In this document: piece after piece, positions 1-46,570 of the stretch
Numbering within the stretch: position 1 is the stretch's first letter
Layout: each line of letters starts with the position of its first letter
DNA from: Marsupella aquatica
Lineage: Eukaryota > Plantae > Marchantiophyta
Assembly (NCBI GenBank): GCA_973895155.1
Contig: OZ316896.1
Coordinates: forward strand, 7,024,232 to 7,088,231
Direction: 5' to 3'
DNA length: 64,000 bases
The notes under the pieces: generated by a model
What the model saw: the letters and a program-made list of their open reading frames with translations, nothing else
The model's database searches: none
Told to the model about the DNA's origin: nothing
Program-made: the position numbers and the translations under genes

Positions 1-3000
1 ACATGTATGGTTTCCCTCGTGTATGCCTCTTATAAAAGTCTTCACAAGAACACGAAGGGAAACAACAGATTTGCACCCAATATGTGTGCGGAACTTGTGA
101 ATCAGTCTCGTGAGTGGTGATCAAGTATCTCCAACCCCATCCATTTCCGGTAGTTACCTTCTCATTTCCGACAACTCTCATGTGTTCTTGTGTAGTGGAA
201 ACGATGCGCTTGAGCAACTCTGGAGTATTGCTGAAACGCTATCGTGCACCCTTACCATTTCGGGTTTTCAACCGACGGTCCACATTAGTTAGATCGATTC
301 GTTCGGGGAATGAGTTAACATCAATTCGTAGGTTGACCCGATTGGGGGACGGGAACTCTCCAACTTGATTTGCATCCACATAGGAGAGTCCACTGATCTG
401 GAATCCTAATCCCAGCAGAAACTCTATCTCGGGATGGGAGAGGCAAGTCCCACGCTGAACCTTGAGCGACTCGGGTGGGGGGGTAGTTGAGCTAGAGTTC
501 TGCGTCCTCGGCTCTTGTGACACTTATTGTTAGGATAGAAGTACAACAACTGGCAATGTGGAGACGATAATCGCAACCTGTGAATGGCGACTCCAACAAT
601 TCCCCCTTGTGCGGACTTACATCCAGTCTCCTTGATGAGATTTCTACATTCATCTCTTCCAAAAACGCTTCGGTCAACCGACCCGTTGCAAACAGGTCCA
701 GCACCTCTACCGCTCCGCCTGAGATGCCAGGTCCCATAAGGAACATCAACCTCTCGGATGGAAGGGATCCTTTGGGGGGCATCCCGATGGTCATCCCCGA
801 CATCACACGAAGGTTGAGTCCCCATCTTCTCGGTATCATTGACATTACGACTTGCATCATCACCATCGTCATCTGAAATATGGATAACTCCAGCAGAACA
901 ACCTCCGACAGGGGTTGCCGAAGTTGTATTATTTGCTATTTCTAGGTCCGCAGAAGTCTCCGAAACATTGACGAAGTGAAATTCAGGATAGAGATTACGC
1001 CTTTTTAGTCCTGAAGGAGAAGCTGTTGTGCGTGACACCTTGTCATGTCTGTGGGAGTCATTCTCGTGGATTACAACTGAAGCTTTCCCTTTCCTCTTTG
1101 TGGATGTTGTTCGGAGATCGCCATGTAATGGAACTGTTCTATAGAATTCATACTTAGCTGAAGACTCAAGCAAAAGATTTGCTGCCTTTTCGTAAGCATC
1201 CATGGATCCCATAGCATCGGCGTTCCTATATGCTAATTCAAAAATGGTCGGCCCCTGGCCTCTGTGAACACCTTCACTGTAGGCAGTAAAAGTAGCAATT
1301 TGCCCCGCAGCACGATTCTGGTCCACCTCACATGCTTCAATCAATCCCACTAATTTCTTCATTTGGCAGGATCTCATGGATGCATGGACTGATTCCGCTC
1401 CAGTACAATTTGGCATCAAGGCTGACTCCATTGCGGTTTGCGTCTGCAAAAAAGTAGTCCACAGTCAGACCTGATATGCTAGCGAGGTCGCTAGCAAAAA
1501 CAATGACGTCAAATAGAAATGAAATTGGACACTTACAACGCGGATGAAGTTCCCCCACTGCCTCCACCTCACGACCCACCAAGATAACCATCCTTGGAGA
1601 GATTTCAATTTCCCAGCATAGCAGTTTCCTTCCTTCCACCAACGATGGATTTCGTCAACAACACGGTAGGCCTGAACATATGTTGGTGTTGTTCTCAGCC
1701 TTTCCCACAGTTTATAGTGCTCTCGATGGTGATCTTCTCGAATACCCTCCAATGTGTGACGACGAAGAGATTGAGCAAAGTGAAAGGCGTCACTGTGCTC
1801 CTTCTGTGGGTGACGGACACCTCCAAAAAAACATTCTGAATGGCGATCCATCCAGCCTCGGCATTATCGGCAATAAATCCTCCAATGAGTGGGTCATGCA
1901 CGTCATGATCAGAGGCAACTTCAATCATATATCTCCATGCGGTTTCAAGAGATAAGGAGTCCTCCGCACGGAGCTCACAAGTGAAGATGGTACAAAGGGA
2001 CCTGTAATTATGGTCGTACACATGGGCGCTGAAAGTCAGCCACCCAGTGCTTATTCTCCGCATTACATCAGAACTGACCCATGCTCCTTCCAGCTCACCT
2101 CCACTCTTCATCTGCCTGAGAATATCGACACCAGAACCTGGGCCATTTGTACTCATTTTGAAGACATGAGCCCTATCGGTCTTGCTCCCCTGGCCAGGGA
2201 AAAGGTACCTCTGAACGTAAGGAAAATTATTCCGTGCTTGCATCTCACGAAGAGAATCCAACTCACCTTTTTTTGGGTTATCCATTTTCATGCTCCGGAA
2301 TATGGCCTGGAATTTCTCAACAGTGGACACAACCTTCATCGATTCCCATATCTCTCTCTCTTCTTCTTTTGATAGTTCTGAAGAAGACTCTTGATGCAAA
2401 AGAGAAACCAGGTTTCCTATAGACTTGTTAAGAACACGCCCTGGCGTACACACGGGATTCGCTTTATGAACACCAGAAACTATCACCTTCGCCTGCTTTT
2501 TTGCCAATCGAGATTTCTCTTTCCAAACAACGTGGTCATGGAAACCCATGTGAATAGCCAATCGAGACATATGTTTTGCAACATTTGACTCAAGAGACAA
2601 CTTAGGATAGACATACAAAAGTTTAGCCGGACATTCACGGATGCAGAGAGGCCTCTCCTCACAGAATCCGCACACCAACCCTCCTTCCTCCACAAGCTCA
2701 CCAAGATGAAACGGCTCAGTAAATTGTCCCTTTCCTCGGAAGGAAGAGTCATTTTTTGAACCGGTGTGCTTCAACTTTCTACAGACCAGACTTTGACATT
2801 CAAGTACACCGGCACATCTGACTTTTGACACAGACCAGTGATTGCGAGGTTTGAGATTAGCTGAAGTTGTGAGAAGTCTTGTCCATGGGTAGCTGTCATT
2901 ATCCCTATCCATGTCCTGAAGACCATATCCTCGACGAAATTGACCTTCGACCGGAGGAAGCTCAAAAACGCAGTTTCCGTTGTATGAAGTGGGCAAAGTC

Positions 3001-3581
3001 TGCACTTGAATCTCCTTCCAATCGTTTCCCCTGTGGAAATTTGCCAACTTGCTTGACCCAGTAATATTGAGGAAGGCATCATATGCACTAACTCGATAAA
3101 GAACTGGCTGAGATTGAAACTTGTATTGACTAACTGCTTCAAAAACGGCTTTCTCAGAAGACTTTGTCGACACAGAAGAGAGATCCCGACCCACACTCTC
3201 AGGGGAGATGTCGATAATATCTGGTACTGTCGGTGACGGGCGAGTCGGGGATTCTGGATCAAAAACATTGATATGTGCAATGTCATCCTTACATGAGACT
3301 AGCTCCATAGCTGAACCACACTTCAGGTCCCAAGCTCTCTCTGGAAATATTCCTGAACCATTATCCGACACCTCGTGACTTCTGGATCCATTCCGAGAGT
3401 AAAGGACAAACAACTTCCAGATGAAATCATCTTTCAAAAGCCCAAACCTCGACGAGAGAAAAGACTCCTTGACATAGATAATAGTATTCTCCGGAACATC
3501 TAGAACAACAACATCACCTGTAGTCTTTCTCTCGATCACAACCTTCGATCCCAATGAAGACATGTTGACAGTTTTGGACAT
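1..3581 (-). pseudogene. Mutator-like (MULE) transposase: GCM-like Zn domain + DDE core + C-terminal SWIM finger; disrupted, runs off the left edge
   Basis: ORF 1695-3581 has DSYPW..TTS, CAGVLEC..C, CGFC..CPA..HMGFHDH (GCM/WRKY-GCM1-like), then WVSSDV and GFIADNAEAGW. A frameshift at the A-run ~1824-1831 leads into SDAFHFAQSL (MULE C/DxxH). After a GT-AG intron ~1536-1446 comes CTGAESVH (catalytic E). The frame at 1-238 reads YWVQICCFPSCSCEDF (SWIM). Confidence 0.8.
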
Positions 3582-3590
3582 TACAGTCTA

Positions 3591-3707
3591 CAATCTCTTT
3601 TGGTTGCTCTTTTCTTTGATTGCATTGTACTTTACTTTTTGTGGCAGCTCCTTTGACTTTCATGGTCCCGGAGCTTATAATACATTACCATTACCATTAC
3701 CATTACC
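3591..3707 (+). mobile_element. Short 3' end of a LINE with (CATTAC)n tail
   Basis: Near-identical to 19674-19790, the 3' end of a longer LINE fragment. Flanked by ACAATC on both sides (possible TSD or microhomology). Confidence 0.8.
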
Positions 3708-4372
3708 AACAATCCTCAAATGTGAGATACTTCGCTCTCTTCTTTCTCCAAATACATATGAGGAAACGTGCTTGTGTAGTGTTGGACTCAACGTATTTAT
3801 TTAATAAATGCCTCTTATTCCCGTTATCTGACCATTATTTTGTCTTATATGACACTATTTACGGAATGATAAAGCTAGCGAGATCGCTAGCTCAATGATC
3901 TAAGTAAAATGGTTCAAAACCTTACAAAACACCCTTCACTAGTTCATAGATTTAGTGATCAATTTTTGGCTAGCGATGTCGCTAGCAAAAGTAGTTTCTT
4001 ATAAGAGACCATTATGACCGTTTATATCCGTTGGAATTTGTCAACGGGTACCTATATGTCAACGGTACGGTACATTACCGGACACCTGTCTCTTTGTCAT
4101 TAGATACTTTTCTTTCAGTCGTGAGTTCGGTGGTTCGTATTTCCGGAAGTACATGTATACCTGACAGTGTCTAAAAAATGATTGCGAGGAGAGTCGTACA
4201 GAATATCTGTATCTCTTTTCACGATCGGGCGTTGCATTCAGGTGAAAGCAACAGACGAGGGTACGATTTTGTCTTTGACTGGAAGATCGATTCTCGGGTT
4301 TCTTTATGTTCGCAAAGCGTGTCGCCCTCGACCTTGACCTGTTCATACCCTTATCACTTCACGGACCCACTG

Positions 4373-7300
4373 ATGGAGCCATTGTCTTCACCCGAGAGCT
4401 TGTCATCAATAGGATCGTTCAAGTCAGTCGAGTCAAGCCGAAGGGAGACAAGGTCTACAGTGAACAAGAAGGCGCTCCAGGCGGGATTGAAAACACCGAG
4501 GAGGCCCAAGATGGTGAACCAAGTAGATGTTGTGAATCCTACGTTTCAACCTGGAGCTTCAGAACCCTATTCTGTTGTCATCAATCGCCATCTTTTCCCT
4601 TTTGGAAATGATGAATTTGGATTCCCCCTCGCTCCTCCGAGGATTCCCCTTTGCAGAATGCAAAACATGCAGATCATTCGGTCCTTGCAAACAAACTCGA
4701 CTACGATCGAGACACTCAAGAATGAATTCCAGACGCAGGGATACATCAAAGATGCGCCTCGATTTTACGTCCAAATGATCGGCAAAGATGGCCTTGTCCA
4801 GATGTGCGAGGATGTGATTCGGGAGTCGTGGGATGACATGTGGATTCTTCAGAATGAAGAATTCGAGAGGGAATGTGATTCTCACGAAGCTTTCAAAATT
4901 TTGAAAGACAAAATGTTCTGTGTTTTTGATGGAAATCATCGTCTGTACTCATGGATGCAGCTTGCGGACGAGAATCCCCATGATGTCAAATATCATCCTT
5001 GAGTTGTTTGCTGAATTTTCAAGGGTGACAAGAACTCATTCGTTCAGATTGAGTCGGCGATGCATGCGCTGAATAGGTTTGTTTCTTTTCCTTCAAGCTC
5101 TGAATTGTATATAAAATTCTTTCAGTTCCTCTTGTTAGCGATCTCGCTGACCTGTTTCTTTTGTTCAGGTTGACTCAATGTCACGTTGAGAATTCTTGGG
5201 TCCTTGAAGCAGAGAGAGTCCAGAAGGTGCTCAGTAATGACCTTTCTGTATACAAAGATATCATCGATGCAGACAACTACAAACTTTTCCAACAGAAGAT
5301 GGCAAATATCAGGAAACCGGCTTGGTATTCGAAGAACATGACACTCGATGCCTGCACATACATTCTATCTGCTGCTAATATTGCAACGCAGACGGAAGAT
5401 TTGAAGAAGAAGTTCCAATTGAAAGAAGCGCAAGGAGAACCTCTTTCAAAAGCTGCGCAAGACATGGCAGTGAAAGACATGATGAAGGAGCAACTAGCAG
5501 ATTGGAATGTGAAGGTGCCAAAGATTGGACCTCTCCTGAATCCTGAGTTTGGTGACTTTTTCCAGAAGTGTGTTGAGATGCACAACTACTGCGAACATGA
5601 GAGGAAGGAGGCCCAACGAACAGACGATAAAGGAAGGGGTAATGTGTCATGTGGTCTCGATCGTGCGAGGCTATTTACGGGTGTCTTGTCGTTGACTCCG
5701 CAGCTCAGATGTGTACTCCTCGAGGCACAATGCAGACCTGAGCTTCGCAAGAAGTACTTCCACCCTGGTCAATTCTCGAACAGCAAAACAAAACTTTGGC
5801 TTCACCGATGGGCTGTCTGGGAGCAAGTTGAGTCAATTTGTTCTTCGCTCATGTCTGAGATTATTTCAGATATGATCCCAACTGTCCCAGATGCAAGGAT
5901 CCTTACTTCCTCTGAGAAGACAAAGCCATCGTTGATCCTTGACATAGAGGAGGACTTTGAAGATTTCCAAACTAGAGTGAAATCTTGTTTTTTCAGACAG
6001 ATTTGGCCACCAAAGTTGGGTGAGAAGATTGACATCTCACTTTTTCGGAGGAGGGCGAAGAGATATACGTATTGTTTTTTTGTGGATAGAGAAGTTGCTG
6101 ACAAAACATATTGGTGGTCCTATCCTGCTTGCTTCTCGCCCTCCGTTAAATATGGAGAGTACTCGATGTACCCATGTGAGGGAGTGGAGGCTCCAAGGAA
6201 GATGAGTGAGTGGGAAGTCCTTCACTGTCCATGGTATTTAGAATCAGACAAATGGGCAGTGACATTTGACACAGCAGAGAAGGTAGCATTTCATATGATA
6301 AATCGAGGCTTGATACCAGAGTCGTACATTACAGAGTCCAAATTAGCTCCTGCAGAAGCCGAGGCTGGCGGATGTGAGGCAATGGAGAAAGTTGTTCTTG
6401 GTGTAGCTGCCATTGTCGACCGGAGTAGATCGAGGAGACCTCGCAAGGTGCCGGTGAAGGACACGTCCAAAGATGGATCAGTCTTGTCTGGGAAGCAAAG
6501 TAAGTCTTTTTCTCCTCTTTTTTTCATACCTCATTCAGAGTAATTTTGTCTCAGTCACCTGTCTAACATTAACATGTTTTTCAGAGAAGAGAAAGGCTGC
6601 AGCCTCTGGGAGTTTGAAGAGTGGGGCGGATGATGGAGAAGAACCCAAGTCTCCTGATGTTGAGGTCACAACAAAATCTGCTGTGGACCTGGGTTCAATC
6701 AAGCGTTTAAAGAGGAAGCGCAATGTCCAAATTCTCTCCGACTCGGATGAGGAGGAAGCATGCATCGCGCAAGGAGTAGCACGAATGTGACCTTAAGAAG
6801 GACGGTGAGAGGCATTTCTTGGCAAAGAGCAATCTCATGGAAACTGCAAACTCAATTAGCCAGAGGAAAGTAAGACCTCCCTGGATGGGCGATGCGGATC
6901 AGTGGTTGTCTGGAGTGAGCAAATCGAGCGAACACCCAAACGCCATGATGATCAACGGAAAACATTATGCTGGAATTGGTGCTCACTTGGGTTTCATATT
7001 CCTTCCCACGGGTCATCGAATGAGTGTCACAGACCGGGAGGTCCCGAAGTGGAATGTTTGGAGTGAGAAATTACCATATTATTTCTTTGGAGTCATGCGT
7101 CCGATGCTTGCCGATGATGGTTATGTCGCAGTTCTTCACAGCTCTGACTATAACCATATGAGACAATTTTTTTCTGCCATTGAGCAAAAGAACAAATTTA
7201 AACATGTTCGACAGTATTCGGTTTTGCTTTCATCTCCTCTGTATCAGGCAGATATGGACATCGAGGTAAGATATACTCAATATTTTTGTGCAATTTTTGC

Positions 7301-7885
7301 TAGCGAGCTCGCTAACCAAAAGTGCCCATTTCTGACATATTCTCATTTTCAATTCAGGTGGTTACTCTCATTATGGATGTCTTCTGCAAGGTGGAATTCT
7401 CGGCAAAAGTCCCGAAACATACAGGATATGTTCCAATGACTTCCTCTGAGGATGCCCGCCATAACTCGATGTTGAGTGTTTGCTACCCAAAAACTGATCC
7501 CAGTCCCAAGGCGGCTTTTGCAGGTTCCAATAGATTGTCAGTTGGGTTCATGCAAGCCGTAATGGAGATCCTTACTTTGCCAAAGGACATTGTCATTGAC
7601 TGGACTATTGGAGATGGAAGTGCTTTTTCCGCTGGGGAATATGCTGGGAGATTTGTTGTGGGTGTTGAAGATCGAGACATTCTTCATCTGTGTGCGCAAA
7701 AAACTTTGGCAAATGTGTTGGATAGACATGCCCAGAAGTTGAAAGGGGCCGCAGACCCGAAAAACGATGATCCCAATGATGAAGGGTCGGATGATGAGTT
7801 CACCATCCCAGGAGATGATCAGGGAGGACCTTCAGACGAGAAGGATGAATTCGACCTGGAGCAAAGCACTTGGCCTTTGATGTAG
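4373..7885 (+). pseudogene. Spliced gene: ParB/Sulfiredoxin-like N-terminal domain + C-terminal N4C/N6A (beta-class-like) methyltransferase-like domain
   Basis: FCVFDGNHRL at ~4916-4945 (ParB DGxHR motif). C-terminal VMEILTLPKDIVIDWTIGDGSAFSAGEYAGRFVVGVE resembles the SAM-binding end of N6_N4 MTases, and RPMLADDG resembles RVLKPGG. GT-AG introns at ~5078-5169, 6500-6584 and 7266-7357. In-frame stops at 5000 and 5012 and a disruption near 6790. Confidence 0.65.
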
Positions 7886-9029
7886 AACTCCCTATTTGGT
7901 GTTTTTCTTTTGTTTGTAGAATTTTCGGATGTGTAGTATTGATCCGATTCTGGTGATTTCTTTAGTGATAGGTGTTCGGATTGGTTTTCGGAGGAGAGAT
8001 TCCGCCTTCGGAAAGAAATCGAGAATCATTTTCTTGTGACCCCTGAGAAGGGATTTGCGCTTCCATGCTATGCTAAAAAGACTGCAAAGGAGGGTGATGA
8101 AGTGCCCGTCGTTTTGACTTGGGAGGGGAAAGGTCTGCGGTCAGTGAGGGGTGTTCAGAAAGCCCTTTACTGCCCTCGGTTCATAGATGATGAGGCTGGG
8201 ACTGTAGCACAGTATGTTGACGATTCGGCTGAGGAGACTGATAGGGAGTCAAGTAGCGATCCTAGTAATTCCTCAGATGATTTGGAATCAGAGGATTCTC
8301 AATGACTCATGGTCAATTTCAGATGCAATCTCATTCTAGAAGATATTTGTCATACCAAAGTTTTATTAAAGATGGATTGTGAAAGGTTTTTTGACCTGGT
8401 TTTGCTCATTGTGATGATGCCTTTTCATTCAGTTCAGTGTAGTGAAGATCTCGATTTTTGCATTTGTGAATATTTAAGTTTCTGCATTTTTGTTTTCCGT
8501 AACTGTTTCACAATATATATCGACAATCTTACTTGGGAATCCGCCTGAACTACCCTGAAGTTACGCACAAACTTGCCTCGCTAGCCTGCTGTCCTCGCTA
8601 GCAAAACTCCTGTTTGCTCGCACAATAGAATACCTCTGAAGAACTCATTGTCGCATCGTCCACATCCTCACAGAGCCCCACACCTTTCCCTGCCTTGCTT
8701 GCATACATTTTGCTCTGCTGCCATTATTATGAAAGAGCTTACGTGAACTGTTTGTTTTGACATTTTCTCCCAGTTGTTGACAAGTATAAAAAACAAACGT
8801 AGCTGATTGACTGACCCTAATCTTATGGACAAGTGTTTCCTGGACGTCCAAGTCTAACTGGGCACCTCTATAGGTAACCCATAAGGAGTTACGTCTTGGA
8901 CATAAAACAATTTTATGTCCTAGGTTGTAATTCAGTTAGGGGGTGCATTGACACGCCCTAATGTCAGGCTTTGAGATGCCCTAATAAGGGTTTTCCCTAG
9001 TTTCCTAACTCTTAAACTATCCAATATAT

Positions 9030-11470
9030 ATATCACAGTGCCCAAGGGCAAAGAATGACAAACCACAAGACATGATCCCAAAGGCAAAGCAACCTAATGA
9101 AGGGGAGGAAAAGAGGGGAAAAGGCCAAGAAAAACCAAGCCAAGGGGTCCCTAACCAAAAGCCGACAAAAATGTAACATATATAGGAGCCATGAAGGCTA
9201 ACACCCTACTAAGCGAAGAACTGATCAAAAAGCCTGGTAGAGCTCCGGAGTAAACCGCAAAGGAGGGTCCCAAAGTGGAACCTGAAGGGAGGCTCTAAAA
9301 CCAACTGCCTCAGCCCTACAAAGGAGGGTGAAAGCCTGGGCCCGCTGAAGAGCCACATACACCCGCTGCCAAAAAAGGCGATGAGGACATAACAAGGGGG
9401 AAAGGCCTCCTCTCACTACAATAAATAGCACATGCCCACGGGAACTGCTCAAAGGTAGGGTGGAGAGCACCAAAAACCTCAATGGCAAAGGGGTAGAAAA
9501 GATCCCCTAAGTAGCAAACTGCATAGGCCTCCTCCTTGAGCCGGCGGCCTTGGCAGCTGCATGGCCAGGCACATGGGCGGTGACCGCGACATGGTTCCCT
9601 CCGGTAGGGTCAACAACAACCACATCCCCAAGAGCATGAACTCCAACCGTAGAAAAGACCCGCCTTCGGTCAGGAAGACGATGCAAGGGGGAAGAACATG
9701 TCGTTGCTCCATGGCGTCATGGTAAATAGAGTCTCGGGCAATGGCAACTACCACATCCCAAATATCATCATGGGTGGCAGTCCTCTCGCTCCCATGGCCA
9801 CACCTCAGAATATGAACTCTCAATGAATCCAACGATGCCCCCACAAACACACTTGGGTTGGCCAAGAAGGCAAGGGTGAGCAAGTCCCAACCTAAGGCAC
9901 AATGAAGTGGTAAAGAGGAAGGAGCTCATACGAAGGGGGTCCATAAAGGACTAGCAGATAGCCACGCTTCAGAACCAGTTCCCGCACAAGATAGGAGATG
10001 AGCTCAAACCAAGTCTGAAGGTGCATCCGAGAGCATGCTGGAAAGGGTGTGACGGTGCATGCGATTGGAAATCACCTACTGGACACGGTCCAAATTGTCT
10101 AGAACCACCTCCATGAAGTTAGGAACAACGGCTTGCACAACCTTGGGCCCTGCCTCGGCCAGGACTAAACGGGTCTAGCAAAGGCAAACCTGGAAAGAGA
10201 GGACCCCCTCCTCAACCCCCATGGCGTTGTTAAAGAGGATGGGTTGGAGATCCACAATCAAGCAAGAAGCAAGGGAAGGGCCACCTAGTACTCCCAACTC
10301 CCAAGGCATGCGCATGGGGCAGTGGAAACAGCTAAGGAAATACCCATGCCACCGCTAGAAGGCGTCAGGGAAACCTGTCAAGCCATAAAAGAACCGTCCT
10401 CTCCATCAAGGGGTCTAGGGCCAATAAGGTGTCTAACAATCCCCATCACATTGGTGTCAAAGGATGAGAGAAAGGACAAAAACAAGGGAGTGGGCGGAAC
10501 AGTTTAGAGAAGTATGAAGGGTGTCGGACAAAGCACTAGACCAAAATCATGAAGGCAATTTGGACGTCGCCAAGGGCCACCAACTGGTCGATGTGAAGAA
10601 CATCCTGAGATAATGCCACCTGCAAAAACTCATGGGCAAACATATCCTCCATGAATGGGACCCCCAGGACCCCTAATGCCCTCCTCACGAAGGGAGACAC
10701 CAAGGGGAGGGGAGAAAGAATTTGGGAGAGGATGCAGAGACCAGACCCCGCACTTCCAAGACTGCACCAAAAGGCCAAGAAGCGCTAGCTAATCAACAAA
10801 GTGGAGATAAGCATCCCCAAGGATTGAGATGGGCCCCACCAAATGAGTATCATTAGCAATGGACAAGAAACATGCACCCGGGCAGGGCAAGCAAAGACTC
10901 CAGGAGAGCATAAAAGTGCCATGGCAAATAAAGCCCCATCGATGGGCACGAGAGTGCCTGACTCAGAAAGAATCATTGTGTAGGACCCATGACTAAGTCA
11001 GTTAGGATAGAACAAAAGGGCACAGGTCCCATAGAAAGCCCGAACAAAAGGAATGAGGGAGGCAATCTCCCCACTAGCCTCCCGCAACTTTTCAAAAATA
11101 GCATGTCGAGAGACAATGTTGAAAGCATTGGCCAAGTCCACCTACATGACCGCCCAATCAGGATGGATATTTGCGATCGAACGTAGACCATGCACTACAC
11201 TCTCACAACCCCCCGCCTAGGGTGACCACCTCAAACTGATGAGGGGAGAGTTGAGAAGCAAAAGGTGATTGAGTTTGAAGGAAAACACAACAACTGACCA
11301 TCCAGTAAAGAATTTCACCAATGGCAAGGGGCCGCACCCCAGAAGGCTCCTTGGCCATCGCCAAAAGACGGTTGGCCCCCAGGAGCCGGGCCACAACAAG
11401 GGGAATACGGCTCCCAACAACATGAGCAAAGGTCCCATGGAGGAGGCTACTTTAGCAAATAAGCAGGTGA
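9030..11470 (-). mobile_element. CRE-like (restriction-like-endonuclease) non-LTR retrotransposon, degraded and 5'-truncated
   Basis: RT N-terminal motifs RLLAMAKEPSGVRPLAIGE..LSPHQF..GG (11203-11394). C-terminal zinc knuckle HILRCGHGSERTATHD (9479-9883). Many frameshifts. Confidence 0.7.
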
Positions 11471-14400
11471 GTTCAGGGATTCACTTGGTTAACCTATTAC
11501 TAGGGTTACAATATGCCCTTTGAAGTAGGGTAGAATTTTTAGGGAATTGTATCTCTCTTCTCACAAAATTCAACCAAGTGAGGGACTCCACACTTAGGGA
11601 GGCAATAAACCGGGTATTGAGGGCCAAGTTTTTTGTGCCCCAGTGATTCAAGTTGAGTTGGGGGCCCATTGAGACAGATGCCAAAGTAAAAAATGGACTG
11701 GTCTCAGTGCATTTGGACAAGCTAGTTGCTTAGACCCATGAGCGTATCTTGGAGGCAAGGCGGCAGCCATTGACAAGTTGAAAATGGGGAAACAAGGGCA
11801 TGCCTAGTAGAGTTGCTCCGGACAAGCAATGGGAGTCAAGCCTTTGTTTCCGCTTATGGCAAGACTAGTGTGAGACCAATGACATGGTCCTTATTTGGCA
11901 ATATGATTGAATTTGTATGCGGTACACAACAAGTAGTTGTTGAGACTATGTATCAATTAGCAAGATGGTGAATATTATGGCAATCATGTCCATTAGAGTA
12001 GGGATATATGATAGTTCATTTTTCTGAGCACACAACCAAGGCAGGCAGAGTTACTATTAGGGCCATAAATGAGTGGCTGGAGGAAGAGAGGATTCACCTC
12101 CTTTACCATACCATTGTGCTAATGAGCATGATGGAGCACGGAGGCTCTCCAGGACATCGGTGCAGAGGTAGACATGGTAACTCATGGAAGCAAGTCTCCA
12201 CAACTAAGAATGGAGCTATGTGAGAGGGTGATTTTTCTCAGCATATCACCAATTGTTTTGTGTGTGCATGTTCTTCTTTAGTCAGGTTAAGAGATCCATA
12301 GTGAACTCATATTAGCACGGGTTTGAGTTAGTCTAAGCTTGGCCTCGGCTTATCACAGGTTAGCTCGGCCTGAGCTTAAGTTAAACTTGGGTTTAGGATA
12401 GCTTGAACTGGGCTAGCACAGCTCACCTTGGGGTTGGGCTCAACTTCGCCTAGATTAGCGAGTAGCGGGTTAGCCTAAGGCCGTGGGTTAGGTATAGTCG
12501 GGTTAGATATATAGGATAGTTGGGTTAGCCATTCTTGGGAGTCACTCTACCTCGGCATTGGTTTGACTGAGGGCCCCCTTCAAGGTTTGGCATAGCTTTA
12601 TCCCTTCATGAACTCCATCATGAAAGTCACGCAATTCTGCCATGTACACACCTCAGGATGATCATACTAAAGAGGGTCCTCTGATTCTTTACAAGCAATT
12701 TCCAGGAGCAATTCCAGCCCCTCCAAATGAATGTGCTATCTTTGTCCGGGTCCTCCGCTTCCTTATCTTGCACCGTCTCATCTCCCAGTTCAGGTGGCAG
12801 CTTCTTGGCTAGGACCTCCATGACATTAGTGGCTATCCTCCTGATCTTGGTGGTGAAGGATGGCATGGCTTCTTTCTCAACTTCTAGGAAGGGGATGAGT
12901 CCTTCTGCCCTGGCCAACAGAAAAGACCCAATCAAATGGATCATTCCTCCAGGTCTCATACTATTCGGATCTATCGTCAAAGCCCTTTTCAATCCAAAAG
13001 ACAACCAACCGGATATACACTCCTGGCCAGTGGGCTTTTATGTCCATGGCAATAGCCAACTGATCCCCATTGACCACTCCAGACCGTCCTCGACTGTGTA
13101 TCTATGCCACAAATCCCTTGTACACTGAATCTTTGAAGGATGGGAGGGGAATGTTGGTTACAAAAGTGGGCTCCTTCACCAGTTGAGCCAACTTCTCCAA
13201 TGTGAGTACCCCGAGTGGCTCCAACGAGTAGAATGTGACATCCTGGTTCTATAGTAACAACAATCTGGTCAACTCCTCATTGGAAATTAAATAATGTATG
13301 CACCAAAAAATATCCCCTCCGCTCGCAACTCCATTCCTTCCTCAATGTCCCAGCCTTTCCCTAGGGGAATCCTCATTTTCACTCTCATCATATCGGTCAG
13401 CCCAGTGGCTTGAAATGTCTCCTTACAATCCTCTTGAACCCCCGCTAGAACCGGGGCAAATGTCTCGGGGTAAACTCTCCGAAAGGTCTTCCTAGCAATT
13501 GATGCCCCACTTGCTAGCTTTTGGTCCAGTGGTCATGGCTGACATCCTCGTTTCTTCCTCTTGGGCAATCCATAAAGCAATGTAATCTTGGTAGGCTGCC
13601 TTGTGTATGCAAATATGGGCTGCAGTGAACTTCGGTGAGTTGGATGATGGTCTCATTCACAATCCATAGAACTCAGGAAATACCATGATGCGCAAATTCT
13701 TGTTTCCCCAAGCCCGGACAACCCTTTATCACAATCCAATTCTTTCATCAATTCACCCCAAGATCACCAAACGGGAGTACCAAGCTTCAAATAAAAACAC
13801 CATAAGAGCATTCAAAACTGTGGAGAGAGAAGGTTTTTCAAAAACAAGCTTTCATAAATGTGAGGGAAGCTTTCAGAAGCTTGAGGGAGAAAACAAAAAA
13901 GATCAGGGCGTGTGGAAAAATTGGGGAAGCTTTTCGAAGAGGAACCCCCAAGCTTCCTTATATTTGCTCCCCGTTCCCCTTCGCTCCATCTTGCTCGGGT
14001 GCGGAAGCACCCAGGCCCCCTTCCTTCTTCTTTAGACACTATCCTTGTCATGGTCAGTAAGTCATGGGTAGCACACAACCCAAGAAAAATATCTCTATTT
14101 TTACCAGTTTGTTCCCATGGAAGAGCTTAGGGTGGGACCACAAGCAAAAGACGGATAAAAAATTTCTTAGAACCAACAAAATCCCACCTCTATCTTACAA
14201 GAAGCTGGAAAGCTCTCTCGACTTCAAATAAATGTACTACAATCATGACAACAAAACACATCTAACTCTCCACAAGAACTTCCTCGTTGTGAGAGTGCCA
14301 AATTTTACTAAGTGCTAATAAGCAGGCTAGGGAAAACCTGTGAGTAACCCTCTACTAAAAGCTCAAAGCTAGAGATACTGAGGCCTTCATAAGGAACTGC

Positions 14401-15164
14401 CAATATGATGCCAGGGTATACTGGTCGGACCAAGAAACACCTGAAATTACGACACAATTTCTAGCTAATCTTGTATTCAAATAGCAAACCAACAGCTCAC
14501 TAAGAAAACTCTGTTGGGTACCATCTAAACTCCTGCCAATGTTATGCTGCTTCATTTTTCAAAATTGGTTTGTAGAATGGAACTAAGGGCTGAGCCTATA
14601 AGTCTTGGCTACAACACAATCTTAGGCACCAAATTTCAAGAGCCCCTGGTTGAAGATCACCTTCCGGCTCTGAAAATTCATAGTGTCACTCCTTTGGGTA
14701 ACTTTGGCCAACGGAACAATGAAATTGAACAACAAAACATACAACAAACAAGGTACTAAACCTCCAAAATCAGTTGGACTAAGCATGAGGTAGCATCCTA
14801 GTACTCAACCCTTCTAAAGCTCAATTCTCAACCAACTACAAAGGTGGAATCATAGTAAAGAAAAATGTCAACAAAAGGGCAACTTTATGTAACATCATAA
14901 AACCTCTGGTACAAGTGCACCTCAGTCCAAGACTCTTCTACATACCCTCTCTTCTCCTACTAATATCAACGCCTTGCCTTTGCTAGTGCCACGTCTCATT
15001 GCCCACAAGTCTCCCCATGCCAAGTCCTCCCCGGATGGCCTATCCGGGCCTGGACCATAAGGGAGCTCGGAGTCGGAGTCAGTGGCGCCGGGGCTAAGTG
15101 TTAAGGTAGTCGAGTTCCGCGACTTGAGGATTGGATTGGAGTGGCTAAAAAATATTTAAACATT

Positions 15165-15685
15165 GTAGTTTCTTGTGTTGGAGGACAGATTCCTTGTTGC
15201 TTAATAGAAGCTTTGCCCAAGTGGAGTGGAAGCTAAGACCAAGAAGCATATGCTCCCAATGTTGATATTAGTAGGAGAAGAGAGGGTTATGACCCGGCTT
15301 GCAATTCACATAGGTGAGCATAACCATCCTAGTAGAAAGACCCTTCTCAAGGAGTGCATAGAAGATGATTGAGGATTTGATTAAGAAAATCATGAACCCA
15401 ATCCTCTGGCAAAACCAGCAAGGATCTTGAATTCTGCTATAGGGTTGATAGTGAAAGCTCTTTGCAAACATGTTCACGATATGGTTGATATCAAAGAAAC
15501 TGAAATTTGGAAGTCTCTGATGGTACTTTCCACTCCCCAAAAATTTGCATCTCTTTTTGAAGCATTAGGATAGACCAAAAGGGTGGGGGGTGAGTTAGAT
15601 TTTCTTTTGCAAATGCAAAAGAGGATTAACCTTTCATTTCTCCAAAGGTATTTGCTACCAGGTCAGGGTTGTCAAGACAACAGAC
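15165..15685 (+). pseudogene. Second copy of the GCM-MULE transposase, 5' part (split by retroelement insertion)
   Basis: Translates MTRLAIHIGEHNH (~15289) and GELDFLLQMQKRINLSFLQRYLLPGQGCQDNR, homologous to MSRLAIHMGFHDH and GELDSLREMQARNNFPYVQRYLFPGQGSKTDR in 1695-3581. The left boundary is approximate. Confidence 0.8.
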
Positions 15686-16045
15686 TGTCATGCCAAGGGA
15701 CAGTGCCTCTTGTGCACATCGGCATGTCCCTCGCATGCCAGCTAGGTATGTAGTTAGGGCTAGTGTACTACTTGAGTTAGTGTCATGTTCTTGTAGCGAG
15801 TTTGGGCTATTCTTGAAGCAAAGGTGTTTGTTAGTGTGATGCCTGGACCCGGTCCTACTTAGGGCATGTTTTTCTTTGCCATTTTTCAGTTATTCTTGAA
15901 TCGTTGTTGACAGAGCTCAGACAGTGCTCGTCGGTTCCGTACACGAGATTCACACAATGATTCGTTAGATGCTCCCGGGCGATCTTGGCATCCCGCCGGT
16001 TTTCGATTCGATTTCAGTACGCTTGTTTCTCTCACGCCTTTTATT
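15686..16045 (+). repeat. Terminal repeat A1 (~360 bp)
   Basis: Matches 41435-41645 + 45265-45413 with about 10 mismatches by eye. Not followed by B. Confidence 0.9.
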
Positions 16046-16499
16046 CAAGAAGAACTCTCGAGATAGTGGTGAGGGGAAGAAGATTGCTCGTGACAATTTC
16101 GACAATTTCTGGTGAAGCCATTGCAATTTCTTCGACGGACATCGGAGTGACAAGTTAAAAGTTATGGGTTTATTGTGGTGTTATGTGTATACTTAAGTGT
16201 ATACACATAACACTCCCTTGGGGGCCCCGGGTTTTTCGTTTCCGGCACAATCTTCTTTGACCTGCTAGTCCCGCTTCCAACTGTCACTGCCGATCTGCTG
16301 CCGCGGATTGCTTCCGGCTGCTGTGCCCTCGCTTCGAATTAATGCGTTTGCCCCTTTTCCTCCCGTTTTCTTTCTTTTGGTCGACCGCCACCTGGTTCCT
16401 CTCTTTCCCCCGTCGTTGCTCCTCGGCTGCTCAGCGCCCTGCATAGGGTCGCGCACCACTTTTCTTGTTACGCCGAGTACAAAGCGATAGTCGAGAGGG

Positions 16500-16990
16500 A
16501 GGGGCACACGGCCCTATGCTGCATAATTAAGGAGGGGAGGGGAGTTAAGTCGACTCCCTTCTCGGGAGTACATACAACTCCCTGCTCGGGAGTTTCTGCC
16601 AGAGGGCACGAAGCCCCAATTGCTTTTAGAGGAGGGGAGGGGGAAGCAAAAGGAGGGCACGAAGCCCACTTCACCAACATTAAAGAAGGGGGAGGGGGGA
16701 GTTGAAGCAAAAGGAGGGCACGAGGCCCTATGAGTAATTAAGAGATGGGGAGTACATTCGACTCCCTCCTCTCGGGAGTCACGGTCCTGCCAGGCACGAG
16801 GCCCCATTAAACATTAAAGCAGGGGGAATTACACTCGACACCCTGCTTTTGGGAGTACTTTTGCCAGGGGCGAGCACAAGGGCACGAGGCCCTATGAAGC
16901 AATAAAGAGGGGGGAAGGAGGAGTACATTCGAACTCCCTCACATGGGAGCCCTTCTGCCAGGCGCGAGGCCCTATGCAGGGCTCGAGTTA
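16500..16990 (+). repeat. Hairpin-forming tandem repeats in the retroelement leader
   Basis: About 7 copies of GGGCACGA(A/G)GCCC (16604, 16655, 16716, 16793, 16880...) interleaved with ACTCCC-N-GGGAGT stem-loops (16553, 16577, 16761, 16933). Confidence 0.75.
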
Positions 16991-17563
16991 TTAACTCTTG
17001 GGGGTCCCGTTTCTCTTTTTCCCTTCTCCTACCTTCGTCGTTTTTCTTTCCATATGCACGCCGTTGCATTCTTCATCTTTCAGCTGGATTTTTTCCTTTC
17101 GCCTCGCTGCGTTTGTTGTGTATAGGGTCGCGTGCCTATACACATTCGGGCTTTGGCCGGTCCGCCTGGTTTAAGGCGGACCCGTTTTGCACCGTATTTC
17201 TTTCCCGGGGTCCGGTCGCTACATAGGGATGCGAGCACGGTTTGTGTATACACCTACGGCTTGTGCATACACATTGGGGACCCCATTTCGCCGTTTACTC
17301 TTGTTTTCTTCCGCTTCATTTATTTTGACCCTTATAGGCAAGGCCAGTATACACATAGGGGCTAATTTCATTCTGTTTAGCCCGGCCTCCTTGCCTCACA
17401 TCGTTTGCTTCATTGTGGGTTAATTTTCTGGCCTTGGGGCTGCCATTTCTTTTCTTGTCAGTTTCTTTCCCGAAAGCACCTCATACCACCAGAAAAAGAG
17501 GGGGGGTGGAGACATTTCCTGTTGCTACCATTTCCAATTTGGCACCCCGGGTTAGCATGCAGC

Positions 17564-19375
17564 ATGTCAGCAGAGGAGCCGAGTCGTAGCAGCTCATCAC
17601 CACCAACACCCCGGTACCACTTACGGAGTGATCCATGACCGTTGGTGCCAATTTTGACGACGCCAGCAGACAGCAGCAGCACCCACACCATGCAATCCTT
17701 CTGCTACATTTGGCAATCGCTTTACCACTACCCCGAAGCCTGCTATTGCTTCTCTACCCTTTACTCCTTCTGCATCAGTAATTGTTCCAGCTTCATCGAC
17801 ATACAGCATGGATGCCAGTCACTCATCTAGCCGCATTGAGCGCTTCAGTGGGCGGCCCGACACTGTTTCTTTGCGTGAGTTCAAATCCACTTTCTATACT
17901 GTCATTTACGAATTGGAGTTGAAGTATGGCAGCAATTTCACAAATGTGTTTGCATTTAAGCAGCTAGCCAGGTATTGCACCATGAGGCTTTGGATGTGTA
18001 TGAACAGCATTCTCAATGGCTGCTTGCTGTCACACAGTTGCCTAACCCTACCTATGCCAGTGCAATTGCGGCAGCCTCACAATTGGCCTTACAGAATGCC
18101 ATTGCAGCCCATGCTGCTGCTCCTACCACTTCCCCTCCTACTCCAGTTCCTACCACTGCGACAGTTACTCCCACTGTCTTGGCACAGGCTACATCAGACA
18201 TTTCTCCCACCATTGATTCCCCTGCCTTTGCTGATCCAGTGGCTGAGTTTTTCCAGGTTCTTGAATTGGAATTCCCAATCAAGAGTGCTGACAAAATCAT
18301 GCAGTTGGCCACCTTTGTGAGGCAGCGCGATGAAACATTGAAGATGATATATCGCCGGCTTCTCAAGCTGAAGGAGGACACCCAGAGCATCACTGACCTG
18401 GAAGCTGCTCATCGCTATCTTCGCGCATTGGAGGGCACACCAGCTCTCCATTCGCAAGTGTTGCAACAAGTATTCTCAGAGTTTGGAGACAGCTACACCC
18501 TACTCAATGTCTATGACACTACTGAGAAACTTGAGTTGGCCCATGCACATTATGAGGCCAGTATTGCGCATCCACCACGATCCAGGTACCAAGCTGCTGC
18601 CCCTACACTGGCCACCCCTTTCCGTGTGCCACAGTATGGTTCCAAGACCAAGCCAGCCCATGCTGCTTTCATGCTGCCATCTTGCAACTATTGTGGTAAC
18701 CCCAATCACAAGGCTAATGAATGTGATATTATTGCTGAGGACCTGTCTTGTGATTTTTGCGGGAAAGTGGGTCACTTGGAGGCAGTTTGTTTTGCCAAAT
18801 TCCCAGAGAGGAAGTAGCAATGACAGTAGGCCTCTCATCCTACTCCTATTTCCACTCCCCCACCAGCTAGGAGGGCTCCTACTGCATCAGTTGCTGCTCC
18901 TTCCAGTGGCAAAGCACCCGGTGCCAACAAATTGCCCAAGCAACAACAGAAGCAACCAGCTCAGAAGGAGGCTCACAACGCACAGGCAACTCAACTCCAG
19001 TCTTTGACTCATGAGGTTGAGTCCTTACGTGCCCAACTTGCCAACATCAAAGGCAAGTCCACTGCTTCTGCTGGTCCTTCTCAATCGGCTGGTCACGTGC
19101 AACCCATCCCTGGCCCAGGCACCACTGATAGCTCAGCATCTCTACCCTGCTCTTTCTATGGCTTGCCATTTGATGCTCATATGGGTGAGTGTGTGTTTTC
19201 CTCTGCTACACAGCCTGGCCTTACAGCAGAATTTTCAGATTCATTTTGCCCTTCCTATTTTGCTTACCAGCAGGCCAGTGCTGCCTCCCGTATTGCTCCC
19301 ACACGCCGCATTGTATAGGCTGATGGTCTTGCTGCCGGTCCTATGACTAGAGCGAGGGGAGCTCGGGCTGTCATG
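17564..19375 (+). pseudogene. gag of the gypsy-like element
   Basis: IERFSGRPD gag-like start, two zinc knuckles (CNYCGNPNHKANEC, CDFCGKVGHLEAVC). Stops at 17636, 18815 and 19316, plus frameshifts. Confidence 0.8.
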
Positions 19376-19788
19376 ATGGAAGGATATTGACAGGAAAAAG
19401 AGGGTTTGTCAACTATATGATAGCTCTAGTATAGAGAATGAATATCATGTATTCATTGCTTGCAAGTTTTATGAGGGGGTTAGGATGGCATCTCAAATCT
19501 TGGTGAAAGATTTGTATGCATTGTTTGGTCTGCCCCCTCAGCAACTTGGAAGATATATCTTTGCGGTGGATAGGGAAAGGAGAATAGGTTTGGAAAATCT
19601 TTCAGGGCTCTCTAGGTCCATAGGGCTCTCTAGGTCCATAGTTTCTTTGAGGACATAGTTGTCCTCTTTTGAGCAATCTCTTTTGGTTGCTCTTTTCTTT
19701 GATTGCATTATACTTTACTTTTTGTGGCAGCTCCTTTGACTTTCATGGTCCCGAAGCTTATAATACATTACCATTACCATTACCATTA
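19376..19788 (+). mobile_element. 5'-truncated LINE (RTEX/L2-like C-terminus) with (CATTAC)n tail
   Basis: Encodes KRVCQLY..ENEYHVFIACKFYEGVR (LINE ORF2 CCHC end). Removing 19376-19788 rejoins gag and protease in frame (RAVM|PQSF). No TSD seen. Confidence 0.75.
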
Positions 19789-21018
19789 CCCCAATCTTTT
19801 CAGCCACTCACACTTGCTGAAGAGCGCACCTTGTTGGCAAGGGGGGAGGGAGCTGCAGCTACATCCATTCCACCACCAGGTGCTGCTGACATTTCACAGG
19901 GAGTTGTTTCTCCTGAGTTACTTGAGCATTTCACCTCCCGTATGGCACAAAGGATTCTTACAACTCCACTTTTCAGTTGCCATGATTTACAACTGGATGC
20001 TAGAGCTGTCATGAGAGCGCTAGCAGGCTCATTGCATTCTTCATCAGCCCTTGTGCCACCAGTTTTGGAGGTCCAATCTCATGTACATACTGGACCTTCT
20101 TCTTCTCCATTACATGCTTCCACTGGTTTGGCTATCCCAGTACCAATTTCCAGTGGTAGCGATGATAGTATTGCTGCAGATTGTATGACCAGAGCTACAC
20201 TGGATTCTGGTCATGCTGCTCCATCTTTCCTGACTATGCTGTTGAGTGGAAAGACCGTGGATACTAACTCCCTTCACAAGGTACCTCATCATTTGCCAAA
20301 AGTGGTGCCTAGCGACAGGACTTCAATTTCCACCACCATTGCCATTGTTGACAATAGGAATTCAACAATCAAGTTGGAGGATCACACTCCTCAGGTGGTC
20401 ATGCTAGACACAGGTGCTCAACCAGTGATATTGGGCATTCAGTTTGCCAAGAAGATGGGACTGCTGACTGATCATTTACAGCAATCCAAGTGGCACATTC
20501 GGACTACTAGTGGCACTGTGGAGGATGTGTTGGGTGAGAGTTCTACTTTACTCACTCTCACTTTTAATGGAGGTACAGATCAGGAACTGCATTTCCCAGT
20601 CAAATGTTTGGTTACCAATGCCACTACGTATGATGTGCTCATTGGCCAGGAGGCTTTGTTCCCACCAGGTTTTACCATTGACAACTGGCATGAGCATGCA
20701 TACTACAGAGCTAATTGGCATACGGATGGCTCACACTTGGGCTACATTCCACTTGATTTGCATGGTGCTCATACACCTATGGCTCACCACTGTGTGTTGA
20801 AAGCAGTGCACACAGCTACCTATGTCAACCACCCATTGCAGGATTGGATTGAGGAGGATGATGATGAGGTGGCTGCTGCACATGCTGTTGCACGTATAGC
20901 AGCACTTTCCATCAATGTAGATCATCAACCAAAGGTGGTACAATGGCTCCAAGCAGCCCTTGGACCTTTGGTGGCTGCATTGCGCAAATTTGAGGACCTT
21001 GGGCAGCACAATGGATAA
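19789..21018 (+). pseudogene. Aspartic protease region of pol
   Basis: VMLDTGAQPVILG catalytic motif and YDVLIG C-terminal motif. Confidence 0.85.
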
Positions 21019-45413: not shown

Positions 45414-45585
45414 TATAGAGGTTTACACCTCCACTATGTACATACCACCTCAGTTGCTTTTTCTTGGCACTTGTGAATGTGATACTTTTTCTAAGGATGT
45501 TGGTTGCTAGCAGCTTGCACATATGCATTGCCGGTGACTTGCATGTTTTCGATACACTATGGCTACAATACTATATGTCACGACA
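45414..45585 (+). repeat. Terminal repeat B2
   Basis: Copy of B1 ending CACGACA, directly followed by TSD AGAC. Confidence 0.9.
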
Positions 45586-46570
45586 AGACCTCACATCTTC
45601 AAAATGACCGTGAAGGGTTATGGTTCTGGTGTAGATCTTTTGCGGTAGATGCAACCGGGTGAAAGAGTCAAAGGAGCCTGGGTGAGTTTTGATGTCATGC
45701 ATCGTGTGACAACCAATTGGTTTACTTTTAGCGTGCACATCTATGACCATAACTTCCGTGCTCTTTGTACAATTTTCACATGCGAGCTGAACGATGAAGA
45801 CGCCAAGTCCTTCAAAAAGGCTTGGAGAGTTATGATAGAGGTTTGCAAGGAAAATGGATTACAGGATGTTGTCATCCAAGGGTTTATGGCGGACAATGCA
45901 CAAGCAAGATGGAATGTTGTCTGCAATGTTTTTTTGGGTGGACACCCAACCCCAGAGCGAGAGCGCTATGATGCATTTCACTTTAATTTATCAATCTTTT
46001 CATTGACATTCCAAGGAAGGAGTATTGGAAGAATGTCAATCGGAACATCGAAGATTGTGGGAGAAGGTAAGAAACACTCCGACATTTGTGGTAGTGTATC
46101 AGGTATCTCGAGAGATTGTGTTGTGGTGGCAATCAAGAAACTATGTACCAGGAAAGCTCATGATGCTACAAAGTTGGATATCCTGGTGGGTGGTTCACTG
46201 GAGCCAGTGGGGGAATTTTATGCAAGTGGTATGATATATATCTCCTCTCTTGTGTGTCATTGTACATCAACTTTAGACTAGCGTAAGGTGCTAGTTTGAT
46301 TTGCAAGTAATTCACATGTTGAAAAGATGAATGCAATACATTACAGCCAATATGTCCACAAATTGCAAGAATTAGAGTTTGAAATAGTATTTGACGTTTG
46401 TATTACATGATCATTGTTGCCAGCGCCGGGCGCTCGTAATAGAATGATACTTATTGTTGAACTTGTACTATGGCAGAGAGAAAGCGCACAAGAAGGTGCC
46501 TTGATTCCCAACAAGTATAGGATCAGAATCAAGGCATGCCTCCATGAAAGCATGGGCTACAAAGAAACTA
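45586..46570 (+). pseudogene. Second GCM-MULE transposase copy, 3' part (DDE core)
   Basis: PHIFKMTVKGYGSGVDLL, WVSFDVMHRV, GFMADNAQA, YDAFHF, SWWVVHWSQWGNF. Intron at 46229 is in the same position as in copy 1. PTSIGSESRHASMK follows. Confidence 0.85.

Follow-up and report, generated by a model that had tools for sequence, protein, structure and literature searches.

Palindromes confined to the non-coding DNA of a Mutator-like repeat element in the liverwort Marsupella aquatica: candidate binding sites of an element-encoded protein

A 64,000-nucleotide stretch of the genome of the liverwort Marsupella aquatica (GenBank assembly GCA_973895155.1, contig OZ316896.1, positions 7,024,232 to 7,088,231 of the forward strand; hereafter the window) begins with about 8.7 kb of a repeat element that carries only two genes. 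These are divergent, a Mutator-like transposase gene lying on the minus strand and a second gene, here gene 2, which is predicted to encode an accessory protein with ParB/Srx-like and methylase-like domains, lying on the plus strand. An 18-bp palindrome recurs in the non-coding DNA of this element. Our tentative reading is that the palindromes are binding sites of an element-encoded protein, most probably of the accessory protein, which would thus mark the DNA of its own element.

The palindrome GCTAGCGAnnTCGCTAGC, or as a pattern GCTAGCGANNTCGCTAGC, is present exactly at three positions and with a single mismatch at a fourth, though the expected count of GCTAGCGANNTCGCTAGC in the 64-kb window is 0.00 and matches were seen in 0 of 100 shuffles. 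A fifth site, which is clearly degenerate, surfaces once up to three mismatches are allowed. The half-site GCTAGCGA was found nine times against 0.61 expected, every copy lying within 1478-8602, and two lone half-sites near the 3' end are direct copies, 17 bp apart start to start. In register the half-site reads (T)TTTGCTAGCGA(G), and the core of the palindrome is GCTAGCG-N4-CGCTAGC, i.e. a 7-base core with a 4-base spacing. The sites are:

1478..1495: exact palindrome GCTAGCGAGGTCGCTAGC, 41 nt past the 5' splice site of the transposase-gene intron.
3874..3891: exact palindrome GCTAGCGAGATCGCTAGC (palindrome 1), in the divergent intergenic region; position 3880 is often A in other copies.
3969..3986: exact palindrome GCTAGCGATGTCGCTAGC (palindrome 2), in the divergent intergenic region, with TTTT/AAAA flanks.
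5134..5151: degenerate palindrome GTTAGCGATCTCGCTGAC, with three mismatches, in gene 2 intron 1.
7299..7316: palindrome with one mismatch, GCTAGCGAGCTCGCTAAC, in gene 2 intron 3.
8578..8602, minus strand: two direct half-sites GCTAGCGAGG (8578-8585 and 8595-8602), in the 3' non-coding end, just inside the collapse in repeat depth described below.
46278..46294: relic CTAGCGTAAGGTGCTAG, in the equivalent intron of a diverged second transposase copy (copy 2), about 45 nt past the 5' splice site.

The relaxed pattern CTAGCGN{4,7}GCTAG matches only the three exact palindromes and the relic in the whole window, with 0.01 matches expected. A second relaxed scan, which allowed up to two mismatches and gaps of 2-7, had a loose control and was not relied on (mononucleotide shuffles averaged 0.6 matches and reached up to 5). 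The hexamer GCTAGC occurs nine times in 1-8700 against 1.69 expected, all nine falling inside the sites, and 10 times against 10.26 expected in the remainder of the window. Among the 8- to 10-mers of the 1632 non-coding bases of the element, only the half-site and a CATTAC microsatellite are over-represented. The motif is strongly non-random and restricted to the element. An earlier note on this DNA had placed it in the transposase intron, twice in the divergent promoter, in two introns of gene 2 and, as half-sites, downstream, and the motif scan bears out all of these positions. Its description of the copies as 18-bp palindromes suits five sites, of which only three are perfect, and its remark that the motif was not seen elsewhere in the window holds for GCTAGCGANNTCGCTAGC and the half-site, no further copies of which were found.

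The layout of the element against which the sites were placed is:

1..1443, minus strand: 3' part of the transposase-like gene, which runs past the left edge of the window and is colinear with a metagenomic relative (L001, below).
1444..1536, minus strand: transposase-gene intron, 93 nt, GT..AG, supported by homologues and by GTAAGT in the window.
1537..3581, minus strand: main exon of the Mutator-like transposase gene.
3582..4372: divergent intergenic (promoter) region, 791 bp.
4373..5076, plus strand: gene 2 exon 1, with a ParB/Srx-like domain and a GNHR motif.
5077..5168, plus strand: gene 2 intron 1, GT..AG, which carries the 5134 palindrome.
5169..6499, plus strand: gene 2 exon 2, mostly helical, of a fold without a match.
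6500..6584, plus strand: gene 2 intron 2, GT..AG, palindrome-free.
6585..7265, plus strand: gene 2 exon 3, with a conserved LPTG segment.
7266..7357, plus strand: gene 2 intron 3, GT..AG, which carries the 7299 palindrome.
7358..7882, plus strand: gene 2 exon 4, with an N6_N4 DNA methylase-like segment for S-adenosylmethionine (SAM) binding.

At the intron at 1444-1536 all four transposase homologues run into junk right after ...WGNxIR[LV], at the same codon, and the gene 2 introns were defined by reading frames and by homologues that begin or end at these points. The sites occupy three of the four defined introns, the divergent promoter and the 3' non-coding end after the last open frame, and none lies in an exon, as had been claimed. 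Non-coding DNA makes up about 1632 of the 8700 bases of the element, and by our own arithmetic the chance that six independent placements would all hit it is about 5e-5.

Contigs of four public sequencing runs (with three organism labels) were aligned to 1-9000 at a likeness of at least 80 %, yielding 2394, 7476, 293 and 1018 aligned contigs. In each run the summed contig depth stays high through all 300-base bins as far as 8700, and in 8701-9000 it falls more than 10-fold, to 286.9, 418.3, 0 and 4.62, being already low at 8688. In runs X3 and X5 there are contigs in which the 3' part of the transposase gene is fused directly to that of gene 2 (1373 with 8025, 870 with 6050), and the appearance of these joints suggests internal-deletion, non-autonomous derivatives of the element. 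Because depth is high over 1-8700 and then collapses, and because of the deletion joints, the transposase gene and gene 2 form one high-copy repeat unit, as the earlier note had supposed when it tied the two genes together. Just past the half-sites the unit either ends or is interrupted by a nested insertion, and no long terminal repeat pair that would indicate a nested insertion near 8.7 kb was found within 8300-22000. The copy in the window is a pseudogene, broken in both genes: the transposase frame shifts at the A7 run at 1826-1832, gene 2 has in-frame TGA codons at 5000-5002 and 5012-5014, and near 6785 the length of gene 2 differs by 2 nt from that in other copies, changing the frame.

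Three further observations concern this unit. In run X1 the depth of the bin 3601-3900 is 3-4 times that of the neighbouring bins. A 117-bp stretch at 3591-3707, which includes the TATA-like box of the transposase gene, its 5' leader and (CATTAC)n, recurs with 98 % identity at 19674-19790, 16 kb away and without the rest of the element. The ratio of observed to expected CpG is 0.70 in the element (1-8650) and 0.41 in 8651-64000, which points to an element that is young or that loses CpG more slowly than the DNA around it.

Diverged relatives carry the motif too. A metagenome scan confirmed one of 77 candidate stretches as a relative, the 2078-bp contig L001, whose transposase is 63 % identical over residues 339-588 and in which the homologous intron begins after ...WGNYIRL|GTAATG. 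This intron contains three 26-bp palindromes, TATTGCTAGCGCCGGCGCTAGCAATA, that is TATTGCTAG[C/T]GC[C/T]GGCGCTAGCAATA, spaced 84 and 90 bp, whereas its counterpart in the window contains one; three matches compare with 0.43 expected and were reached by 0 of 200 shuffles. The core GCTAGCG and the 4-base spacing are shared between L001 and the window, while both arms have symmetrically different inner bases, GA..TC in the window and GC..GC in L001, and the TTTT flank of the window corresponds to TATT in L001. The middle palindrome of L001 (1172-1231) centres a perfect inverted repeat of 29+29 nt, which suggests recent palindrome growth through template switching or conversion. The transposase of copy 2 is about 50 % identical at the protein level and is split in two by 29.9 kb of inserted DNA, residues ~318-450 being encoded at 15289-15684 and residues 448-663 at 45580-46231 (a side note gives the second part as 45580-46900). 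The copy 2 relic has a spacer one base longer and a C-to-T change in one arm. Given that the relaxed pattern is expected only 0.01 times it is not due to chance, and the relic placed near 46277-46295 by the earlier note is thus real. In all three lineages the first palindrome lies 31-45 nt past the 5' splice site of the same intron. Because the same core and spacing occur in the L001 intron, and a relic in that of copy 2, the motif is a feature of the family.

Variation among the copies was scored by aligning the same four runs to the promoter region at 3790-4070, which gave 40 variant rows at 39 positions. Only one of the 32 specified palindrome positions is variable, compared to 38 of 249 others (Fisher one-sided p = 0.043), and two of these 38 are free central bases of palindrome 1. 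The zone 3827-4009 gives p = 0.003 but was picked after seeing the data, and 0.043 is the unbiased figure. Palindrome 2 with its flanks (3963-3990) has no variants across the four runs and a depth peak in X1, X3 and X6. Loose-end consensuses of other copies retain TTTTTGGCTAG and GCTAGCAAAAATAG beside unlike flanks, reading ...CAGTTTTTGGCTAG and GCTAGCAAAAATAG..., and two contigs skip 3896-3961 or 3896-3963, between the promoter palindromes (joining 3895 with 3962 or with 3964).

A search of 1.84 billion representatives with the first exon of gene 2 returned 191 relatives at E<=0.001, and G-N-H-R is nearly invariant in a 60-sequence alignment. The AF2 model of this exon has a pLDDT of 84.1, exceeding 90 over most of residues 70-209. 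Foldseek returned no match to it at E<=0.001; the top PDB rows were sulfiredoxin, PadC, Noc and ParB-N (best E 0.93) and the best BFVD match was a protein named ParB/RepB/Spo0J (probability 0.93, E 0.39). When the 39 chains from Foldseek were superposed with VIA-align, M. xanthus ParB (7bnr_B) gave Z 6.7 with a root-mean-square deviation of 2.2 over 69 residues, where a Z under 8 counts as middling by the tool's own warning, and all nine chains at Z>=5 were ParB, Noc, KorB, free serine kinase or 1vk1. A PDB sequence profile search with the ParB-like domain found nothing, and weak Pfam matches among the 60 members included those to DndB (3/60, best E 0.066) and DUF1015 (3/60, best E 0.0056).

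Exon 2 (443 residues) is helical in its AF2 model, with a mean pLDDT of 62.6. Exon 4 matches N6_N4_Mtase in Pfam at E 0.16, N6_N4 clusters in the ESM Atlas at 0.89 and PRK13699 of NCBIfam at E 2.1e-4 (21 bits against a cut-off of 244), and the methylase-like match spans only profile positions ~150-218, and some 55 residues like the SAM-binding part. Gene 2 reaches no Pfam family at curated cut-offs. A named liverwort protein of 1207 aa (P0166) is colinear with gene 2, its residues 126-321, 328-683 and 1060-1170 aligning to 4484-5074, 5185-6300 and 7373-7717, and it matches Pfam N6_N4_Mtase at E 5.2e-5 (23.7 bits against a cut-off of 26.7) and the PHROG 'DNA methyltransferase' at 8.7e-7. The named relatives come from a liverwort and a fern. 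The catalytic motif of the N6_N4 methylase class is D/S/N-P-P-Y/F, and no such motif is recognisable in gene 2, the sole candidate segment being LPTG in four of four relatives; because LPTG stands in its place, the methylase-like domain may be inactive. 'ParB-MTase', the name used in the earlier note, is a fair label for the predicted architecture and not for either activity.

In the mechanism we propose, a protein dimer would read the half-sites (T)TTTGCTAGCGA(G), and the dimer would be formed by the accessory protein and not by the transposase. The sites would be spread along the element because their binder acts on the whole of it, through transcriptional control, anti-silencing or DNA modification, and they would be tolerated only outside exons. 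The accessory protein would in this way recognise and mark the DNA of its element, as VANC proteins do on VANDAL elements. We favour it as the binder because the sites occupy every kind of non-coding compartment, which fits an action on the whole element like that of VANC21 on VANDAL21.

Several findings weigh against this proposal. In classical ParB the DNA sequence is read by a part other than the ParB/Srx domain, none of 33 scanned exon 1 homologues matches Pfam ParBc, and the fold and family scores of the accessory protein are under the usual thresholds (Foldseek E 0.4-1, Z <8). No helix-turn-helix was found after the N-terminal domain, the best Foldseek E for exon 2 being 2.6 with a low-confidence model. 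There are phage ParB-like activators of DNA dioxygenases without a DNA-binding domain (PMC13229309), a warning that a ParB fold does not by itself imply the reading of parS. The rest of the window yielded no relative of gene 2, near either part of copy 2 or elsewhere, and in L001 and copy 2 the palindrome travels with the transposase intron, the L001 contig being only 2078 bp long. As the window copy is broken in both genes, it need not be active now. Lastly, the conservation signal among copies is modest: the comparison with surrounding sequence that the earlier note had suggested, run on 3790-4070, gave the p = 0.043 above, but position 3880 in palindrome 1 commonly shows G>A, and the variant-free runs at 4010-4038 and 4040-4070 match 3963-3990 in length.

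The other labels of the earlier note fare unevenly. 'parS' is apt for the palindromic form only and is otherwise weak: the ParB/Srx-like fold is seen at no more than middling scores, no helix-turn-helix was found, and there is no ParA-like gene, none of the nine open reading frame pieces of the element matching any Pfam family at E<=0.01. Matches behind 'MULE' (Mutator-like element) and 'MTase' exist but are weak and under curated cut-offs, and the 'GCM' domain was confirmed by no tool.

The transposase is the main rival binder because the palindrome travels with its intron and the half-sites stand at the apparent end of the element. The Cys/His-rich N-terminal region of the Mutator-like transposase would then bind the sites, in the manner of the subterminal repeats of En/Spm, Ac or Mu, with the internal copies autoregulating the divergent promoter, an explanation that we judge unlikely though deserving of serious consideration. 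In its favour are the two direct half-sites 17 bp apart, just inside the depth collapse. In three diverged lineages the intron of the transposase gene itself has kept the palindrome, no gene 2 was seen beside copy 2, and five aligned transposases have invariant Cys and His columns in the N-terminal half. Yet recognition of the ends leaves unexplained the intron copies, which lie 1.5 to 7 kb from the end, the protein matches no DNA-binding domain of Pfam, the left end of the element is beyond the window, and the drop in depth could instead reflect a nested insertion. Mutator-like elements are bounded by long terminal inverted repeats and duplicate 8-11 bp of target DNA.

Database relatives of the transposase-like protein number only four, all unnamed, among 5.8 billion proteins, and 0 of 24 pattern stretches in viral contigs were confirmed as relatives. 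It has no Pfam match even at E<=10, and a PDB sequence profile search gave nothing meaningful (best E 0.22). The ten best named clusters in the ESM Atlas are all of MULE-clan families (top score 0.87), which serves as a lead only. At the left edge of the window a minus-strand open frame (2-238) ends ...CCFPSCSCEDFYKRHTRGKPYM, with a CxC.. motif when read by eye; we take this to resemble the start of the SWIM-type zinc finger that is presumably C-terminal in Mutator-like transposases.

It is improbable that the palindromes have no function and are simply palindromic or tandem sequence that propagates itself through slippage, template switching or gene conversion and survives only outside the reach of selection on coding sequence. 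Copy number does differ (one against three) between relatives, one L001 site has grown to a 60-bp perfect palindrome, some copies are without the stretch between the promoter palindromes, and the 5134 site and palindrome 1 decay in some copies. Against this, the 7-base core and 4-base spacing persist at protein identities of approximately 50-63 %, over which the flanks and the inner bases do change, the motif is found in five separate non-coding compartments, and the same dynamics are known for the functional targets of VANC (PMC5735166).

Also improbable is that the sites are targets of the methylase-like domain itself, with GCTAGC or the 8-mer as the modification site, or of a host factor. 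Type II methylases read hexamer palindromes of the GCTAGC kind; such a hexamer is present in each arm, and the nine copies in the element are all within sites. The higher CpG ratio of the element compared to the rest of the window (0.70 against 0.41) would also fit, but may reflect youth only. The recognised methylase-like part is moreover restricted to some 55 SAM-binding-like residues, and the candidate catalytic motif is LPTG, in four of four relatives, and not D/S/N-P-P-Y/F.

Finally, the palindromes might work by forming hairpins, either in RNA or in DNA that is single-stranded or cruciform (in splicing, intron retention or small-RNA pathways), which we consider the least probable explanation: introns with a palindrome do out-fold their shuffles (1444-1536 with z -3.0 and 5077-5168 with z -2.7, compared to z -0.5 for the palindrome-free intron), the L001 change preserves arm complementarity and its middle site is in the perfect inverted repeat, but any DNA palindrome folds as RNA so that the folding test cannot discriminate, the intron with the 7299 site gives only z -1.1, two of the sites are in the divergent promoter, the 2-4 bases at the centre are free to vary, and the terminal half-sites are direct repeats unable to pair (z -1.2 for that stretch). 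As direct half-sites cannot form a hairpin they point to reading by a protein, and the fixed spacing with free central bases, the lone direct half-sites and the presence of sites in both promoter and introns together argue for a duplex site of a protein dimer.

Palindromes of similar form were also encountered in prokaryotes. A scan of prokaryotic genomes with a two-palindrome pattern gave 20 loci, eight of them in metagenome-assembled genomes of Solirubrobacterales, and a scan of the same type gave two matches in viral contigs. In two Solirubrobacterales contigs (L003, 3085-3102; L004, 2990-3100) copies of GCTAGCG-N4-CGCTAGC are clustered, one being identical to the 3969 site. Those of L004 are upstream of a ribbon-helix-helix gene (RHH_1, E 2.2e-5) and near a phage prohead protease, and were rejected as relatives; they are probably an unrelated operator of similar form in a phage-like setting.

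Elsewhere in the window a PHD-finger-like open frame (40800-41216) and a 608-aa open frame (51262-53088) are possibly host genes, and both lie amid retrotransposon-like sequence (9-12 kb and elsewhere).

A broader proposal, which we regard as possible but doubtful, is that a prokaryote-type ParB/Srx-methylase-like protein was recruited by Mutator-like transposons of the plant lineage, its dimer loading on palindromes seeded through the promoter, introns and end of the element and co-evolving with them between lineages (GA..TC against GC..GC arms), and serving as an epigenetic shield or mark; this would amount to an independent invention akin to VANC with a parS-like logic. ParB-like and methylase-like accessory genes in eukaryotic transposons were noted in 2011 and again in 2025 (in brown and red algae), with their DNA targets undefined. 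The concept has precedents; what is new here is the specific motif, its placement and the host element. No paper was found in the literature that defines a target sequence for such proteins or describes palindromes in the introns of their genes, the supplements of Petroll et al. being outside the search. The class of accessory proteins is extended to Mutator-like elements, with named relatives in a liverwort and a fern. Because the locus offers a precise candidate target, a natural specificity variant (L001) and a placement pattern that matches the experimentally studied VANC21, the hypothesis of self-binding is directly testable.

Among known systems, ParABS is similar in form only, in that five 18-bp inverted repeats and two half-sites are clustered in 7.1 kb; here there is no ParA and no detected helix-turn-helix, and the setting is eukaryotic, with introns. 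The motif presumably has no sequence likeness to parS, and the GNHR of gene 2 differs from what we take to be the ParB arginine patch. In En/Spm, TnpA, an element-encoded, non-catalytic protein, binds 12-bp subterminal repeats that form direct and inverted pairs near the end and in the promoter, and affects promoter activity and methylation. TnpA sites are only subterminal, whereas most of the sites here are internal, in introns. The combination of a ParB/Srx-fold domain, here a predicted one, with short inverted-repeat cis-sites is that of both ParB-parS and DndB and its operator. DndB, with its DGQHR motif that the GNHR of gene 2 resembles, has a ParB/Srx fold (PMC4619093), and its own promoter contains two palindromes, TACG-N10-CGTA, that it binds (PMC4507180); the divergent promoter here likewise contains two palindromes.

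Closer in gene content are transposons of algae. ParB-linked methylase clades occur in eukaryotes (Iyer et al., PMC4738411). In Plavaka elements PAG2 combines a PF01555 methylase with SET, and PAG3 a ParB-like domain (best hit 7BNR_B) with a 2-oxoglutarate (2OG) oxygenase; inverted-repeat tandem arrays adjoin PAG3 in red-algal Plavaka, for which self-binding was proposed, and Chondrus has PAG homologues in Mutator elements as well (Petroll et al., bioRxiv 10.1101/2025.02.11.637652). Sola1-1_Ec32 of Ectocarpus encodes a ParB-like and methylase protein of 1104 aa opposite its transposase (PMC12477816). As in these systems, a ParB-like N-terminus and a PF01555-type methylase-like domain, here both predicted, are encoded in a DNA transposon, on the strand opposite the transposase, and as with PAG3 there are inverted repeats within the element and the best structural match is 7BNR_B. 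Both domains are in one protein, as in Ectocarpus, whereas PAG2 and PAG3 split them, with SET or 2OG partners. Unlike Plavaka and Sola1, the host transposon is Mutator-like with named relatives in a liverwort and a fern, and the palindromes are single and dispersed in introns and promoter instead of forming a tandem array, the repeats being compared by description only.

The placement of the sites is most readily compared with VANDAL21, also a Mutator-like element with an accessory gene, where VANC21 occupies intronic, intergenic and terminal non-coding DNA and the copy number of the motif shifts between related copies through local repeat formation (PMC5735166). In both, the motif is in non-coding DNA and varies in copy number. 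They differ in the protein, which here is predicted to be ParB/Srx-like and methylase-like, and in the motif, an 18-bp inverted repeat of fixed spacing here and the 9-bp YAGTATTAY in tandem arrays in VANDAL21 (PMC5735166).

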